A stretch of 64,000 nt of DNA from a virus. Below are positions 2,340-58,851 of the stretch, one piece after another. The stretch lies in IMG/VR virus record IMGVR_UViG_3300009285_002342, positions 1 through 64,000 of that record, one strand, 5' to 3'. The translations under genes were made by a program, and so were the position numbers. Within the stretch, counting starts at the first letter, position 1. Each line of letters opens with the position of its first letter. The notes below the pieces were generated by a model that worked only from the letters and a program-made list of their open reading frames with translations, was not told where the DNA came from and searched no databases.

Positions 2340-2410
2340 AATTAGATCCATCTGGTTTTCGAAACCCGGTAAATTTCGGTTTACCGGGTTTCTCTATTTA
2401 GAGAGAAACC

Positions 2411-3210: not shown

Positions 3211-3582
3211 ATGAAAAGTTATGTAGAATTTGAAAAAGGTTTTTCAGAGTCAGAGTTTCCAGTTCCTCCATATTTTAACACGGAATCAGAAAAACTTGTC
3301 AAAATTGTCTTTAAAAATCATGCCGTAATTTTAGATAATCCCTCTTCTTTCACAATTCAAAAGGAATCCCCTTCTCCTGAAACCGTTATCAATTATCTTC
3401 TGAATATCCGGAAAGTTACGGAAATCATCCCGAATAAACCGAAAAAGTGGCAAAAGACTTGGAGAAAATTCACCCGTGGAATCCCTATTCCGGGATACTT
3501 TTGGGTCAATATAAAAACCGGCTTATGCAAAAGTGGGCTGGAATTAAGTTATTCTTCAAGAATTGATTTCTTCAACGATTAA
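3211..3582 (+). CDS. Hypothetical protein
   Basis: GGAGG RBS. Confidence 0.75.
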   Translation: MKSYVEFEKGFSESEFPVPPYFNTESEKLVKIVFKNHAVILDNPSSFTIQKESPSPETVINYLLNIRKVTEIIPNKPKKWQKTWRKFTRGIPIPGYFWVNIKTGLCKSGLELSYSSRIDFFND

Positions 3583-3640
3583 ATACTTTGTATATCCCAT
3601 AAGTTAAAAATAGAGACTTACGGGATATACAAAGTGTTTA
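3580..3640 (+). other. Long intergenic stem-loop, RNase III site-like
   Basis: TAAATACTTTGTATATCCC...GGGATATACAAAGTGTTTA forms a near-perfect 19 bp stem, extendable. Confidence 0.6.
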
Positions 3641-3668
3641 ATTATCAACTACCATAAAGGAGGAAAAC

Positions 3669-3848
3669 ATGAAAACTAAAACCTATGTCTTTACGGAGAT
3701 TGAAGTATTCGCTATTCGAGATGCCTTAGTCGAAAAGTTTCATATGGACAAGGCAACTTCCCCAAATAGTCCTATTTTCATCGAAATGAAGAAAGCGACT
3801 GAAGCGTTGAAGGATCAATTCATAGACGATGCAAGAAATTGGAGGTAA
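3669..3848 (+). CDS. Hypothetical protein (59 aa, below track cutoff)
   Basis: AAGGAGG RBS; MKTKTYVFTEIEVFAIRDALV... Confidence 0.7.
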   Translation: MKTKTYVFTEIEVFAIRDALVEKFHMDKATSPNSPIFIEMKKATEALKDQFIDDARNWR

Positions 3849-4861: not shown

Positions 4862-5242
4862 ATGAAAGACTATTTATTCATAGCCCCGGACGGAGATCTT
4901 TTCGATACCAGGAAAAAGAATTGGTCAAAAAAACCTTTACGGCCGAAATTCCGATATTCTTTTTCCAATATTCGCAACGTCAATCAGTTAAAATCTACCT
5001 TACGCAATGGCGAATTCGCCTGGCCGGGTGGATATCCCATGTTTTTTCATACGTCGGATGGTGCAGCACTTCATTTCGATTGCGTACGGGAGAACCTTCG
5101 AAAGGTTATTGATTCCGTCGCGAAGAAAGATAACGACGGATGGAGAGTCGTTGGAATCGAAATCAACTATGAATCGGAACTTTATTGCGATCATTGCGGC
5201 AATCCGATCGAATCAGCATACGGAGAGGAAAAAGAAGAATGA
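4862..5242 (+). CDS. Hypothetical phage protein (WPGGYP motif, Cys pair)
   Basis: AAGGAG RBS; FAWPGGYPMFF...LYCDHCG. Confidence 0.75.
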   Translation: MKDYLFIAPDGDLFDTRKKNWSKKPLRPKFRYSFSNIRNVNQLKSTLRNGEFAWPGGYPMFFHTSDGAALHFDCVRENLRKVIDSVAKKDNDGWRVVGIEINYESELYCDHCGNPIESAYGEEKEE

Positions 5243-5546
5243 AAAAAAATCATATCATATATCAAGAGGCAAAAGGGGAAATATCCGACATTTCCATAGG
5301 TTTTAATCCATATTGTAATTCCTGTAAAGAGCGTTTCGGATTTAGAAACACTTTCGCTGCTTTACAGGCAATTGAAACGTGGCAAAATGGACACGAACTT
5401 ATTCCAATTTCTACCTGGGAGGAATGCGATTGCTGCGGAAAAACACCTCAAGGACAAAAGCAACAACTCTATATCGCACACGGCGTAGATGAAAACGACG
5501 ATTTAGTCTGTTTTTTCTGTGCGAGAAATGTAAAAATAAAATATAA
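5239..5546 (+). pseudogene. Cys-rich protein with probable frameshift in a T-run near 5510-5517
   Basis: CxxC pairs; a final CEKC and a TAA at 5544-5546 lie in another frame, just before the ribozyme. Confidence 0.5.
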
Positions 5547-5549
5547 TCA

Positions 5550-5623
5550 TGCCGAAATACGGGATATTCGCTATCCCGTATCTGACCGGAAGTGGTGCTT
5601 TCGGCGCTGAATGAGGCAAACCA
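5550..5623 (+). ncRNA. Type II hammerhead ribozyme (CUGAAUGA one-nt insertion variant)
   Basis: TGCC-GAAA-[TACGGGATA/TATCCCGTA]-TC-[stem I, loop TGGTG]-CTGAATGA-GGCA; tail ACCA pairs with loop TGGT; predicted cut after C5582. Confidence 0.8.
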
Positions 5624-5636
5624 TAAAGGAGAAACT

Positions 5637-5844
5637 ATGAGAACTATAATTACCAGACCAAATAAATACGGATTTTATGACGAAGTTGGAATGAATAACT
5701 GTTTTTTTGACTTCGGATTATAAAACGGAAAGCGGCCTGATCAAATACGGAATCCCGAAATATTTCCGAGGTAAATTGCGAATCGAAATCTATACGAGTC
5801 TTCATATGTCTAAACCGGCGAAAACTCTTTACGTCGAAAGGTAA
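5637..5844 (+). pseudogene. Small protein interrupted by a frameshift at a T7 run (5702-5708)
   Basis: AAAGGAG RBS; removing one T gives a continuous 68 aa ORF ending just before the radical SAM start. Confidence 0.55.
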
Positions 5845-28073: not shown

Positions 28074-28451
28074 TCAAGGCAAAGTATCGTTTAGCATTAC
28101 AATTTCCCTAGCCAGTCCATTCCGATACCACACTAAAATCACCATACCAAAAGGCGCACCGGCTAACGGAGGCATCCATAGAATATCCATAACTACTTCA
28201 ACCTCATTCCCCACGCCGCCTATATGCCGATATCCGGTCCCCAAAATATCAGCCCTAGAAAGAAAAGGTAAACGGGCGGAACCAGTTCTCATAAGGTAAT
28301 ATTGATCTGTAGATAGATAAGCAGTTATATAGCATCCATCTACCCCTTGCGTAGAAACTTGCTGATTCGCCTCATTCCATTTTTCCGGAAGGCCGAATTG
28401 CGCAAAAGCATTTCCAGAAAGCAAAAGTAGAATAACAATGATTTTTTTCAT
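28074..28451 (-). CDS. Secreted or periplasmic hypothetical protein
   Basis: Signal peptide MKKIIVILLLLSGNAFA. Confidence 0.7.
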   Translation of the reverse strand: MKKIIVILLLLSGNAFAQFGLPEKWNEANQQVSTQGVDGCYITAYLSTDQYYLMRTGSARLPFLSRADILGTGYRHIGGVGNEVEVVMDILWMPPLAGAPFGMVILVWYRNGLAREIVMLNDTLP

Positions 28452-34479: not shown

Positions 34480-34796
34480 AGATTCTCGGCTTTTTCTAAA
34501 GCGATTTTAACGTATTTTGCCCGTTCCGTTAGAATTTCCAACTGTCTTTTCTTCCGAAAAATAAAAGATAGTATCGCTTCTTCCTTCGTCTTACAAGCAA
34601 ACTGATTTTTTGCATTATCTCTTACTATCCGATATTTTCCAGATATATCTATTTTGGTTCCTTTCGGAGTTTTCTTGATTATCGGATATTCCCTTAGTTC
34701 GACTTTTAAGGTAGGCGGATTGGGCGGATTTTCCCCATAGGAATCTTCCGAACCATACAAAATATCTTCGTATCGATACAAAAATTCTTTTTTCAT
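34476..34796 (-). CDS. Hypothetical phage protein
   Basis: KKTPKG; KEEAILSF..RK motif. Confidence 0.7.
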   Translation of the reverse strand: MKKEFLYRYEDILYGSEDSYGENPPNPPTLKVELREYPIIKKTPKGTKIDISGKYRIVRDNAKNQFACKTKEEAILSFIFRKKRQLEILTERAKYVKIALEKAENL

Positions 34797-34962
34797 ATCT
34801 TTTCTCCTGCTAAAATTTTAATTCCTAAGACTTCGGTAGGTGTCATTCCACATTTTAAAAACGCTCTTCCTGTTTCTCCGCGTCGAATAAAACCTTCCGC
34901 CCATTGAATTTCAAAATCCGTCTCGGGTTCAATTAGCAAACCATCTTCTAAAATTTTTATTC

Positions 34963-48819: not shown

Positions 48820-49023
48820 TTATAATTTTGGTTCCATAATCCCTTCTTCATGCATTTTTTCGAAAAACTTAAAAAGATTTAACAAAAATTTATCATTATC
48901 GTTAACTTTTATATCCCATTGATTAAACAGAAAATCCAACAAATTTGATTCTGGATTTCCAAATTCACCAGATTCCATATAATCAAAACAACTTCCGTAT
49001 TTTTCTTCATATTTAAAACACAT
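48820..49023 (-). CDS. Hypothetical protein
   Basis: TAATG-coupled to DnaE. Confidence 0.55.
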   Translation of the reverse strand: MCFKYEEKYGSCFDYMESGEFGNPESNLLDFLFNQWDIKVNDNDKFLLNLFKFFEKMHEEGIMEPKL

Positions 49024-52000
49024 TATTTCGCATTCTCCTTAAATATTTTAGCGAAAATCGCTATCCCCGTTCGAAACTTTTCTAAATTCTCATTCCGATT
49101 CCGCAAGACCCAAGAAGGATGCCCGCACCAGACTACGTGAGCATTTACCTTTTCTACAAATTCAACTTCCCCTATTAATTTCGTTATTCCTTTTTCCCTG
49201 CCGGTTAGAGCGTAAAGGGCTACGCCGCCGGTAGCTAAAATCAACTTACAATTCATACTACGGATAAACGGAATTACCCATTTATTGAAACAGATATCGG
49301 TTTCTTCGCGGGAAGGAGTTCGGGTTTTCGACGGAAAGCACATAGCGCAATTAGCAACATGCACCTGTCTTCTCGTTATTCCGTGTATCGCTAATTCATC
49401 CCAAAGTAGATTACCGGAATCTCCTACATAACCGACGCCTTGTTCATTTTCGGTAGAATTGTGAACAAAAATACCGTTAACTGCAAAATTATGATATTTT
49501 TCAACTTCCATATCGTAAACATCTTCAACTCCTATACATTCAACAGCAACAATCTTATGATTATCGTCTATAGGTATTTCTTCATCCGGAAATCTTTTTT
49601 TAAACAATTCCTTTATTCTTTCATCCGTAATATTGAAAAAGGAACTATTTTTTCTTCCCATTAAATAATTCCAATAATAATTAGGATCTGTTTGAAATTT
49701 TTTCTTTAAAGTTTTGGCCATTTTCTTTTTACTTTTAGAAATTTGCTCAAGCCTTTCTGCATATATCTTTGGGTCTTTAAGCACTTGGCTCATTTTGCGA
49801 CTCAGCTTTCTTCTGTAATTTAAAGAAGTCATAATTTTAGAATGTTTTTCTCTATGTTTTTCATTAAACATAGGATTATTCAAGATTATATGATATTTTG
49901 CGTGATCGGCTACAGAAAGTGACTCTAAATTGTCAAAACTATCGTTATATCTATTCTCATCTATATGATGACAATCTTCTTTATCTTCTAATTTTCTCCC
50001 TAATTTTTGTTCTAATAAAAATCGAGATTCTATAAACATTTCAGTATTAAATGCGCCAATATCATTATATCGATAACTATGGCGATGAAAAGGTTGCAAA
50101 CTATGCCCAATAGTTAACCCGTCCTTTATAGACAAATAATCAACAGTTTCTTGTTTTCCTTTAAACGGATCTTTTTTATTAATAGAATATCTTAATAGAA
50201 ATGGATGATTTTCTGTAACGTTTATCGAACTGGTTTTTCTGATTCTTTCTTTTCCATTAGCAAAATACCATTCATAAGTAACTTTATATACTTTTTTCCT
50301 ACCTGTTTTCCAAACCCTATTGACTTTTCCTAAAACTAATTTTTTGTTTTCTGTATCAAGCGAATAAACATAAAAATCTTTTTGCCCAACTAAATCTTTA
50401 ATAGGAATCCCCGTTAAAGATTTGGATTTATCTCTAAACGCTGTATCTATCAAAGAATCCCCGGTAATACACCCCGGTGCCTCCGCAAGGATCAAAGCGT
50501 TATAGTTTCCGATAGACGGAAGTACAACTCTTGTCGCTTGTTTTCTTAAACCGCAAAGTTCACATTCTTTCGCTTCCGGAACTATTCCGATTTTCTTTAT
50601 GACCGGCAATTTTATTGATTTTCGAGAAACAGAAAATTGAAAATACTTGTTCCAATCCTCCGGTCCTGATTCCGGAATCGTATCGAACGCTTTTATTTCT
50701 TCCATTAACTGCTCTATCTTAGTGGTTCCTACGGCTTGCCTTTTAAAGAAACCTTTCGCTAATCTTTTTGGTTTCATTAATGCACATTTAGCGGCGGCAG
50801 TTTCCCCTATTCCTTTGATTTCAGAAAATGGCGCATAAAGATCGTTTCCTTTTATTTTCCATTTCTTCGTATCGGATATTCCTATCTTAGGCGATACAAT
50901 ACGGAAGCCTTTCTTTTCCGCTTCCGATATCGTCGCGTCTTTATCTTCGCCATAGGTTAAAGTAGCGCAAAGAAATTCTTTCGGATGATTACATTTAAGA
51001 TAGGCGGTTTGATATGCTAATAAGCCGTAACTCGTAGCGTGCGCTGCATTAAATCCGTACATAGCCCATCCCAAAAGATCTTGCCAAAACTTTTCGGCCT
51101 GTCTTTCATTTAAAGTTTTTAACTTCTTACAGCCTTCAAAAAAGGAAATTCTATATGGTTCAAATTCTTTCGGATCGCGCTTCTTGCCGATAACCTTTAA
51201 AACATTATAACCATCGGTAGCAGAAAAACCCGCTAAGTCAATCATAGACCGCATCATTTGTTCCTGATAGGCCATTACGCCATAGGTTGATTTTGTAATT
51301 TCTTCGTACTTCGGATGTAGCGGAATCCATTCCTCGCCATGTTTTCGCTTAACATATAAATCGGCCATTCCCGATTCTAACGGCCCGGGCCTAGCTAAAG
51401 CGCCGATAGCTACAATATCGTTAAATTCATCGGGTTTCATTTCTTTACATAATTTTTTACAGGCATAACCAGACATTTGAAATATTCCGGCGGTATCGCC
51501 TTCCGAAAGCATTTTATAAACCTTCGGATCGTCTAACGGAATATTCTCAATATCCAAATTATCTATTATCTTAACCGCTTCGTCTATAACGACTACGGTA
51601 CTTAGTTTTAAAACGTCAATTTTTACCAGTCCCGCGTGTTCATCGCAATCCACCATATCCCAGTTTATTACAATATTATCGCTACGGCGAACTAAATTGC
51701 CCCTCGTCCCGTCCCTTAGATCTTCTCCGGAAATTATCAATCCTGCTGGATGTCTTCCACTCGAACGGCATTGTCCTTCTAATTCGCAAGCTAAACGGAG
51801 TTGATCTGGATATCGTACTGCAAACTTTCGCCCCTCTCTTGTACTCTCTGCTGCCGCTTTTATAAGTCCGGTAGCATGTCCTTTCCCCTCTATGTTTTTA
51901 GCAAATTCGTCTATATCATTTTCATCTAACTCAAAGACACGGCCTACGTCTCTAACAGAAGAACGACTTTTCATCCTCATAAACGTACTAATTCCTACGA

Positions 52001-53276
52001 CATTATATTCCCCATATTCTTCTACAAGATGTTGTTGTATTTTATCGGTTTGAGTATTATCAAAATCAAGATCAATATCCGGAAGTGATTTTCTATCTTC
52101 GGAAATAAAACGCTCAAATAAAAGATTATATTTTATCGGGTCTATCACTCTTGTTATTCCGGCGAGCATCGAAGTAAGTGAACCTGCAACCGATCCTCTT
52201 CCAGGCCCAACAGGTATCTTCGCTTCCTTACAGTATTGAATCAATTCATAGATAATAAGAAAATAACGAGAAAAGTTTTTATGCTGAATAACTTGCATTT
52301 CCCTCTTGTATCTTTCTCTATATCCTTCGGGCCATCTTTTTCCGAAAATCTCTTCGCCGCCTTTTTCGCATATTTCAGCTAAAATATCTTCGGCGGTTAA
52401 ATCCGGATTCGCCTTTTCGTATCGGGTAAGCGGAAGGGAAGGAATCATTTTAGGAACTCTAAAATCCCAACACTTCTCCGCTATTTCTACTGTTTTCGTT
52501 AAGGCTTCGTAATACTGTTTTCGATTTAAGATATTTTGTGCTTTAAATTCAGAGACCATTTCGTCTGCGGTTCTTAGATGTAAACCTTTAAAACCGAATT
52601 TCCACCTATCCGGATCTTTCCATTTCGCTTGTCTTTGCACAGCTAAAAGAACTTCTTGAGCTTCCCATTGATTTTCGTACACGTAATGGCAGTCGTTCGT
52701 CGCTATAAGCGGAATATTGTATTTTTCTGAAAGTTGTAGACAAAGGTTATTTATCTTAACTTGTGAGGCAATTTGATGTGGCATTACCTCTAAGTATATT
52801 TCTGTTTTTTCGATTAGATCTTTAAAAAGTTCTTCGCCATTAGGCAGATTAAGAAACGAAGACGAACATCCCGTAAGTAAAATTAAACCGGAAAGATCGG
52901 CGCTTCTTAGCAAGGGAAAATCTATTCTCGGTCTACGGTTAAAACCTTCTAAGTTCGCTACGGTTAGCATCCGATTAAGTTCTTGCCAGCCTTGTAGATT
53001 TTTTACTAAAACAGTAATATGTCCCCTAGATTCTTTTCCAGTAGACTTCATATCGGGTACACAATATAGCTCAGTCCCGAGAATTGGCTTTATTCCTACT
53101 TTATCGAAAGCTTTCTGCCATTTTATATGTGTATCTATATTGGAATGATCAGTGATAGCACAGGCTTTAAACCCTAATTCTACATTTCTTTTTGCGTATT
53201 GTTCCGGTTTGCCGATCCCGTCAAGGAGGCTGTATTCCCCGTGCACGTGCAAATGTATAAAATCGGAATTATTCAT
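49023..53276 (-). CDS. dnaE: DNA polymerase III alpha fused to a C-terminal family-4 uracil-DNA glycosylase domain, intein-containing
   Basis: PHP HLHVH..YSLLDG, GPGRGS, FERF, PDIDLD, YGFNAAHA; UDG CELCGL, AEAPG, HPS. Confidence 0.93.
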   Translation of the reverse strand: MNNSDFIHLHVHGEYSLLDGIGKPEQYAKRNVELGFKACAITDHSNIDTHIKWQKAFDKVGIKPILGTELYCVPDMKSTGKESRGHITVLVKNLQGWQELNRMLTVANLEGFNRRPRIDFPLLRSADLSGLILLTGCSSSFLNLPNGEELFKDLIEKTEIYLEVMPHQIASQVKINNLCLQLSEKYNIPLIATNDCHYVYENQWEAQEVLLAVQRQAKWKDPDRWKFGFKGLHLRTADEMVSEFKAQNILNRKQYYEALTKTVEIAEKCWDFRVPKMIPSLPLTRYEKANPDLTAEDILAEICEKGGEEIFGKRWPEGYRERYKREMQVIQHKNFSRYFLIIYELIQYCKEAKIPVGPGRGSVAGSLTSMLAGITRVIDPIKYNLLFERFISEDRKSLPDIDLDFDNTQTDKIQQHLVEEYGEYNVVGISTFMRMKSRSSVRDVGRVFELDENDIDEFAKNIEGKGHATGLIKAAAESTREGRKFAVRYPDQLRLACELEGQCRSSGRHPAGLIISGEDLRDGTRGNLVRRSDNIVINWDMVDCDEHAGLVKIDVLKLSTVVVIDEAVKIIDNLDIENIPLDDPKVYKMLSEGDTAGIFQMSGYACKKLCKEMKPDEFNDIVAIGALARPGPLESGMADLYVKRKHGEEWIPLHPKYEEITKSTYGVMAYQEQMMRSMIDLAGFSATDGYNVLKVIGKKRDPKEFEPYRISFFEGCKKLKTLNERQAEKFWQDLLGWAMYGFNAAHATSYGLLAYQTAYLKCNHPKEFLCATLTYGEDKDATISEAEKKGFRIVSPKIGISDTKKWKIKGNDLYAPFSEIKGIGETAAAKCALMKPKRLAKGFFKRQAVGTTKIEQLMEEIKAFDTIPESGPEDWNKYFQFSVSRKSIKLPVIKKIGIVPEAKECELCGLRKQATRVVLPSIGNYNALILAEAPGCITGDSLIDTAFRDKSKSLTGIPIKDLVGQKDFYVYSLDTENKKLVLGKVNRVWKTGRKKVYKVTYEWYFANGKERIRKTSSINVTENHPFLLRYSINKKDPFKGKQETVDYLSIKDGLTIGHSLQPFHRHSYRYNDIGAFNTEMFIESRFLLEQKLGRKLEDKEDCHHIDENRYNDSFDNLESLSVADHAKYHIILNNPMFNEKHREKHSKIMTSLNYRRKLSRKMSQVLKDPKIYAERLEQISKSKKKMAKTLKKKFQTDPNYYWNYLMGRKNSSFFNITDERIKELFKKRFPDEEIPIDDNHKIVAVECIGVEDVYDMEVEKYHNFAVNGIFVHNSTENEQGVGYVGDSGNLLWDELAIHGITRRQVHVANCAMCFPSKTRTPSREETDICFNKWVIPFIRSMNCKLILATGGVALYALTGREKGITKLIGEVEFVEKVNAHVVWCGHPSWVLRNRNENLEKFRTGIAIFAKIFKENAK
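49458..50471 (-). mobile_element. Intein (338 aa) with HNH endonuclease
   Basis: C1 CITGDSLI, block B VTENHPF, HHIDEN..ND..DNL, block F VYDMEV, terminal HN followed by S+1. Confidence 0.92.
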
Positions 53277-58089: not shown

Positions 58090-58851
58090 TCATATTTTTG
58101 ATCTTACCTTCCGAATAGCAATAGGATTCATTTTTTTCTTAAACGCACGTAAAGACTCGTTCCCTAAATCCCCACAATCATTTACGTATTTTCCGTTTCC
58201 GTATTCTGCCACTTCCCGATAAAACAGCAACCTCATATATTCAGCTAAGTACGGTTCCGCTAAACAAATTGAATAGCGGAAAATTAGATATTTGAAATTC
58301 TCATCCCAAACATTTAAGCCGACAACTTTCTTCCTCTCCATGTCTATCAGAACTTTTCGATTTTTACCGTTTAGACAAAAATCTAACAATACTTCCGCAT
58401 CTTCAATTTGTCTAAAACGCAAAGTCCATTCCGTTAGAAGATCGATAATCGGCGTTACAGGATGCCCCACTACGGCACGAAGATAAGTTAATTTCGGATT
58501 TCGGGCAACGAACTTCCGACTATTTTTACGAAACACTGCCCACTCCCCTCCTTTCATAGTGAGAAAATCGGCAGGATCGTAAATATACTCATAGTCAAGA
58601 AATTCGTTGCCCAACGGGCATTCCGGAAAGTCAGCCCAAAAAGGAGAGTCTTTCCAAAGTGGATTGCCCATTTTTCGGATAACCGGAAACAGTATTTGTT
58701 TTCCCTTATCTTCAACCCAAACTTCGCTTCCGGTATCGTAAACACGAAATTCGGCCCTATCGAAATATTCCTCCGAGCACCAGCAATTCGGCGTTATTCC
58801 GTTAAGGCGAAGAATTTCTAAATATTCTTTCGGACTAATCAGTTTTTTCAT
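58090..58851 (-). CDS. DUF2156 / PG-lysyltransferase C-terminal-like (aminoacyl-tRNA-dependent GNAT) protein
   Basis: DYEYIYD..DF..MKG..W..FRKN..KF; YVND.GDLG.ESLR.FK..M.P. Confidence 0.7.
   Translation of the reverse strand: MKKLISPKEYLEILRLNGITPNCWCSEEYFDRAEFRVYDTGSEVWVEDKGKQILFPVIRKMGNPLWKDSPFWADFPECPLGNEFLDYEYIYDPADFLTMKGGEWAVFRKNSRKFVARNPKLTYLRAVVGHPVTPIIDLLTEWTLRFRQIEDAEVLLDFCLNGKNRKVLIDMERKKVVGLNVWDENFKYLIFRYSICLAEPYLAEYMRLLFYREVAEYGNGKYVNDCGDLGNESLRAFKKKMNPIAIRKVRSKI

Follow-up and report, generated by a model that had tools for sequence, protein, structure and literature searches.

The analysed window covers positions 1-64,000 of an IMG/VR phage record of 115 kb (IMGVR_UViG_3300009285_002342), whose source phage is uncultivated and at least 115 kb in size. 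A block on the + strand (1-9.2 kb) contains small genes and also encodes a pentapeptide-repeat protein and a radical SAM protein, and the − strand carries a DNA polymerase, an exonuclease and similar genes. Two hammerhead-family elements, at 5550-5624 and at approximately 1135-1204, are located within the + strand block at a distance of 4.4 kb. The element at 5550-5624 lies at an intercistronic junction in a + strand early or accessory operon of the phage, with the following features:

5239-5610, + strand: upstream ORF encoding a Cys-rich protein of 123 aa, ending at the UGA inside the core CUGA
5550-5553, + strand: 5'-proximal strand of stem II (UGCC), pairing with 5615-5618 (4 bp), with C5553 as C11.1
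5554-5557, + strand: GAAA (G12 A13 A14 A15.1), invariant in the family alignment
5557-5581, + strand: stem III hairpin of 10 Watson-Crick pairs (5557-5566 with 5572-5581) with the loop UUCGC, closed by A15.1-U16.1 (A5557-U5581)
5582, + strand: C17 of the AUC site, with the predicted cut between 5582 and 5583
5583-5606, + strand: stem I hairpin of 8 bp (5583-5584 with 5605-5606 and 5586-5591 with 5599-5604), A5585 being bulged
5592-5598, + strand: loop I, GUGGUGC, capping stem I
5607-5614, + strand: core box CUGA-A-UGA (CUGAAUGA), read as C3 U4 G5 A6, an extra A (5610 or 5611), U7 G8 A9
5615-5618, + strand: 3'-proximal strand of stem II (GGCA), with G5615 as G10.1
5620-5624, + strand: pseudoknot tail ACCA(U), in which A5620-A5623 pair with U5593-U5596 (UGGU) of loop I, plus G5592
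5625-5639, + strand: Shine-Dalgarno (SD) sequence AAAGGAG (5625-5631, GGAG at 5628-5631) and ATG (5637) of the downstream cistron
5637-5844, + strand: downstream small gene, split into 5637-5723 (28 aa) and 5707-5844 (45 aa) at a T7 run at approximately 5699-5705
approximately 1135-1204, + strand: the other hammerhead-family element, with the core CCGAAGA (U4 changed to C)

Elsewhere in the window, at 2359-2400 (+), directly after ORF 2121-2339 and between the two hammerheads, a GC-rich hairpin precedes a run of U residues; it looks like an intrinsic terminator inside the early block. At 3572-3647, a near-perfect long hairpin of approximately 30 bp is positioned between ORFs 3211-3582 and 3669-3848; it surfaced solely via weak microRNA-like matches on the − strand. 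The DNA polymerase ORF (49023-53276, −, 1417 aa) includes an HNH endonuclease-like stretch at approximately residues 1061-1150, which may be an inserted homing element.

All parts of a type II hammerhead are present at 5550-5624 on the + strand, and its 22 pairs were verified by script. The initial annotation, made from the sequence, had given correct coordinates for the element, and the type II topology that it stated holds. Three helices surround the core: stems I and III end in loops, stem II is open, and the G10.1-C11.1 closing pair is present. Its AUC site, with a cut after 5582, was recovered as well, C17 being placed at 5582 by the covariance model alignments, and position 17 is thus a non-G nucleotide, as the type II hammerhead demands. 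The proposed TGGT/ACCA pseudoknot (5593-5596 with 5620-5623) passed the script check, with at least 4 bp and a duplex energy of approximately −5.7 kcal/mol, and the ribosome-binding site lies directly 3' of the element, as had been noted, with the SD sequence and the ATG 11 and 22 nt past the hammerhead core.

The conserved core nucleotides C3 U4 G5 A6 (N7) G8 A9 were found in order at 5607-5614, and the seven-nucleotide CUGANGA box is interrupted there by one extra A after A6, which is the inserted core nucleotide of the initial annotation. An uninterrupted CUGANGA box is typical of the type II hammerhead without strictly defining it, natural cleaving exceptions having been published. The centroid fold of 5550-5624 agrees with the three-helix hammerhead structure. 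Energetically, the hammerhead fold reached −22.2 kcal/mol before the pseudoknot was added, versus −26.6 kcal/mol for an alternative fold, which is consequently better by 4.4 kcal/mol with the pseudoknot left uncounted.

In Rfam, Hammerhead_II (RF02276) aligned end to end with the element at 18.3 bits versus a cut-off of 37, and this only in a scan of 181 nt; neither the whole-window Rfam scans nor a whole-genome search with RF02276 listed 5550-5624. Standard Rfam annotation misses members such as this one. The frequency of chance matches was determined with a relaxed descriptor of our own, which permits one change in the core box. When the 115-kb genome was shuffled 300 times by dinucleotides, 5 of the shuffles (1.7%, approximately 2% per genome) yielded an equally good candidate, and about three weaker candidates arose per shuffle. 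Taken by itself, the motif evidence for 5550-5624 is only weakly beyond chance, and because the chance matches of the descriptor nearly always have a variant core, the motif alone is insufficient to settle the case. Other descriptor matches in the window were rejected: those at 34741-34807, 58705-58822 and 28255-28316 are in coding sequence and at chance level, and the one at 2359-2415 is the terminator-like hairpin.

Stronger evidence came from the comparison with phage hammerheads. A 20-base pattern taken from stem I, the loop and the core of the window element (CCGGNNGTGGTGC..CGGNNCTGA..GA) retrieved 25 IMG/VR loci versus approximately 1 expected, and about 23 of these proved to be type II hammerheads of the canonical form; in them, GAAA, stem III, GUC and stem II fall outside the pattern. 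To avoid circularity, 64 more loci were fetched by the family-consensus pattern GGTGGTG..CTGATGA..ARCCA, which the window does not match; the 83 phage hammerheads collected within these independently fetched loci served to build the covariance model R3. Run unfiltered on the window, R3 placed 5552-5626 on top at 33.5 bits (E ~8e-7, by a rough calibration), followed by 1136-1204 at 26.7 bits (E ~6e-5). The terminator hairpin scored 18.2 bits, all other window sites scored at most 12.5 bits, and the rest of the 115-kb genome contained no further R3 match. An earlier model, R1, had given 32.8 bits for 5550-5624, a value that is partly circular, and model R2, whose MAFFT alignment lacked the pairs of stems II and III, gave a poor, misaligned match (14.2 bits, E 0.09) and was replaced by R3.

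The family structure itself is well determined, with 97% of the alignment cells paired and compensatory changes on both sides in 18 of the 20 pairs; none of the shuffle and slid controls came close. The window element fits this structure using its own stem sequences. Moreover, its loop hexamer, tail and stem I sequence resemble those of the family more closely than the fold would demand: GUGGUG is the commonest loop (43 of 74 distinct members), the family tail (G/A)CCA stands at the same place as ACCA in the window, and the AUC site is present in other members, too. Across the family, the variable pseudoknot pair is U-G, U-A (the window type) or C-G. Two members, L062:4038-4111 and L070:3782-3855, have divergent but mutually complementary loop I and tail sequences (AUGCU/AGCAU and UUGAGC/GCUCAA, respectively), which in the aligned sequences is clean covariation for the pseudoknot.

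Based on the R3 score, the loop and tail hallmarks and the family structure, we assign 5550-5624 by sequence homology to the family as a member by descent, divergent and low-scoring, and to the subgroup with a GUGGUG loop I and a (G/A)CCA 3' tail pseudoknot. Most relatives score 33-88 bits, with a dozen weak matches at 23-31 bits. The divergence is visible in three indels relative to the family consensus, namely the extra A in CUGAUGA, the bulged A5585 after position 1.2 and one extra loop nucleotide. Furthermore, stem II has 4 bp versus the usual 2-3, and stem III, with 10 bp, is AU-rich and has U-A at 15.2-16.2 versus C-G in nearly all relatives, which makes the site AUC rather than GUC. The core box is exact in approximately 106 of 108 distinct relatives.

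None of the hammerhead-bearing loci fetched came from a phage related to the source phage. A search of viral and metagenome contigs with the 123-aa protein, leaving out records very near the window, yielded no match, nor did a 4-kb blastn against GenBank phages, and a search with the radical SAM neighbour led to a single locus (L001), whose upstream genes differ and in which there is no hammerhead. In several phage contigs (L018, 8262-10768; L047, L060, L045, L061 and L037), arrays of 6-11 type II hammerheads were observed that are spaced a few hundred bases apart, with a single small gene each, a shared GUGGUG loop and differing stems. At L012:4996-5055, stem I, the core and the tail are kept, and the half with GAAA and stem III is lost; this locus is an example of a decayed hammerhead.

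The second R3 match corresponds to the other element of the phage, and the initial annotation's view that the two elements are of the same kind with unrelated stem sequences is borne out: both are among the R3 matches, and their stems are unrelated. The element at approximately 1135-1204 has a 6-bp loop/tail pseudoknot (CUGGAU/AUCCAG) and the family layout, with the upstream TAA (1131-1133) adjoining. Both hammerheads of the source phage deviate in the core box, by U4C at 1136-1204 and by the insertion after A6 ('A6a') at 5550-5624.

Regarding gene layout, 21 of 24 relatives have the upstream stop codon at a distance of 2-7 nt from the ribozyme, and an SD sequence and start codon follow the ribozyme in 20 of 24, with the start 16-22 nt past the core in 8 of 24. 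The SD/ATG spacing in the window fits this layout; the read-through of the upstream ORF does not. The overlap noted in the initial annotation, where the element was described as hidden inside the upstream ORF, is real, the ORF ending at 5610 in the core UGA; the accompanying proposal that the C-terminal tail is a frameshift artefact was not upheld. Three protein records from different assemblies (JGI, ENA and Logan), with 93-98% identity, have the same 123-aa frame running through the ribozyme. The most divergent of these, P0003, is found on the same 958-nt contigs as an intact 67-aa downstream protein (P0004), and its tail differs only by P113L. As judged from the protein record, this exchange is most simply explained by C5576U, after which the pairing with G5562 would persist as G-U. 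The 123-aa protein matched neither a Pfam nor a PHROG family.

Read-through is, on these sequence records, most likely a real state of this lineage. It is probably a secondary change and not the ancestral state, since the stop codon adjoins the ribozyme in 21 of 24 relatives and since out-of-frame TAA triplets are present here at 5537-5539 and 5544-5546 (−6 and −13), in the two frames other than that of the upstream ORF. With a one-base shift in the A-rich run, the upstream side would again have the family layout. The downstream gene is intact in the 93%-identical strain (P0004), and its split in the window reflects a genuine frameshift or else an error in the homopolymer.

Taking the data together, we favour, with moderate confidence, the interpretation that 5550-5624 is a working but slow type II hammerhead ribozyme, whose self-cutting after C5582 most likely serves to process the polycistronic early transcript. 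After transcription, stems III and I would fold first, and stem II and the pseudoknot would then close the three-way junction. The RNA would cut itself 3' of C5582, leaving a 2',3'-cyclic phosphate and a 5'-OH, and the message of the 123-aa gene would be parted from the next cistron. The predicted downstream product has a 5'-OH end and begins with the stem I hairpin, 45 nt ahead of its SD sequence, and the predicted upstream product ends in the 10-bp stem III hairpin, without the last 8 sense codons and the stop codon.

In favour of a ribozyme, the element has every conserved core nucleotide, all three helices, H17 and the pseudoknot; the tail is immediately followed by the SD sequence and start codon, and another family member is found 4.4 kb upstream in the same operon. 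Against it, an insertion after A6 should interfere with the U4 contact, translation of the upstream ORF across the whole motif must compete with folding, and the score is below the Rfam cut-off and below those of most relatives. Slow cleavage is suggested by the additional A that follows A6, by the bulge at A5585 and by the lengthened stem II. According to the description of natural variants in Perreault et al. (2011; PMC3088659), an A6a hammerhead cleaves at a low rate, which is attributed there to the contact of U4 with the A6/N7 phosphate, and pseudoknot-region changes and longer stems cut activity by orders of magnitude. Together with the competing fold described above, these reports are the grounds on which a slow rate is assumed for the window element.

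A possible, though less probable, explanation is that the element descends from a hammerhead and no longer cleaves at a useful rate. Such an inactive relic or exapted structure might persist as the tail of the upstream ORF, or its hairpins might serve transcript stability or the spacing before the ribosome-binding site. This would agree with the low score and the three indels, with the alteration of the CUGAUGA box in both elements of the phage versus an exact box in nearly all relatives, with an ORF that has run into the motif and a downstream gene that is itself broken in the source genome, and with the occurrence of decayed copies, as exemplified by L012. However, every helix and the pseudoknots of both elements are intact, in sequences of their own, which free decay would not keep, all catalytic nucleotides are retained, and a natural A6a variant still cleaves, as described in PMC3088659.

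The combination of perfect helices and a pseudoknot with one core-box change in each element would also fit, as an unlikely variant, two hammerheads that are deliberately attenuated or conditional and not decaying, acting as slow timers or as factor- or ion-dependent switches of early expression. If so, a cut within the upstream ORF would create a non-stop mRNA, by which the synthesis of its protein would be shut off and the next cistron released. Two core-variant hammerheads in one early operon are a simple test case for a possible tuning of ribozyme speed by phages, and so is a ribozyme inside the end of an ORF.

It is very improbable that the structure has a translational or regulatory role apart from cleavage, such as that of a riboswitch-like pseudoknot controlling the adjacent ribosome-binding site. 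The pseudoknot tail does end 1 nt short of the SD region, and a weak preQ1-II-like match (5527-5639) was obtained, driven by the AAAGGAGAAA..AUG stretch; with 20.3 bits versus a cut-off of 47, this match is far under the threshold and poorly aligned. The SD sequence is unpaired in both the hammerhead fold and the MFE fold, and hammerhead homology accounts for every element. A chance look-alike, that is, a hairpin-rich gene 3' end fitting the relaxed descriptor, is suggested by the 1.7% of shuffled genomes with an equal candidate, the accidental appearance of the weaker coding-region matches at 34741-34807 and 58705-58822 and the Rfam score below threshold, but hardly deserves credence given a loop hexamer, tail and stem I that agree with the family beyond the needs of the fold, the roughly calibrated R3 E value and a second R3 match that is another hammerhead of the same operon.

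Compared with known systems, the core insertion of the window element corresponds, by sequence, to the A6a variant known since 2011 and hence is not new. The published example (Perreault et al. 2011, Figure 5), compared here by its description, shares the insertion directly after A6 and otherwise has a consensus core; it was assayed and had low activity. Within IMG/VR, the A6a box was found in one other true hammerhead versus 64 loci with the normal box in the same pattern, so that, judged from these sequences, the variant is rare and sporadic, at approximately 1-2% of members. A metagenome scan for A6a variants with the stem I of the window returned just 3 chance matches in coding DNA, a viral scan with a near-exact pattern, leaving out records very near the window, returned zero matches, and the candidate L030 was dismissed as a coding chance match.

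The other A6a hammerhead (IMGVR_UViG_3300045051_000780, L022:3197-3277:-) has the same CUGAAUGA box and belongs to the GUGGUG/GCCA subfamily. Unlike the window element, it is GC-rich, has a 2-bp stem II, an unbulged stem I and a stop codon adjoining the ribozyme, and scores 66 bits. Its insertion looks recent, since its near relatives L013 and L024 have a normal box. Next to L022, the window element thereby gives the type II hammerhead family of phages a second natural member carrying the rare A6a insertion.

With type II hammerheads as represented by RF02276 and described in PMC3088659, the window element shares GAAA, C17 after U16.1, the G10.1-C11.1 pair, the pseudoknot between loop I and the tail and the intergenic phage position, as well as the GUGGUG loop, the (G/A)CCA tail and the occurrence of multiple copies per phage. 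It differs from typical RF02276 members in the read-through of the upstream ORF and in a score under the gathering threshold. For hammerheads located at gene junctions of phages, 5550-5624 leaves the established picture as it was.
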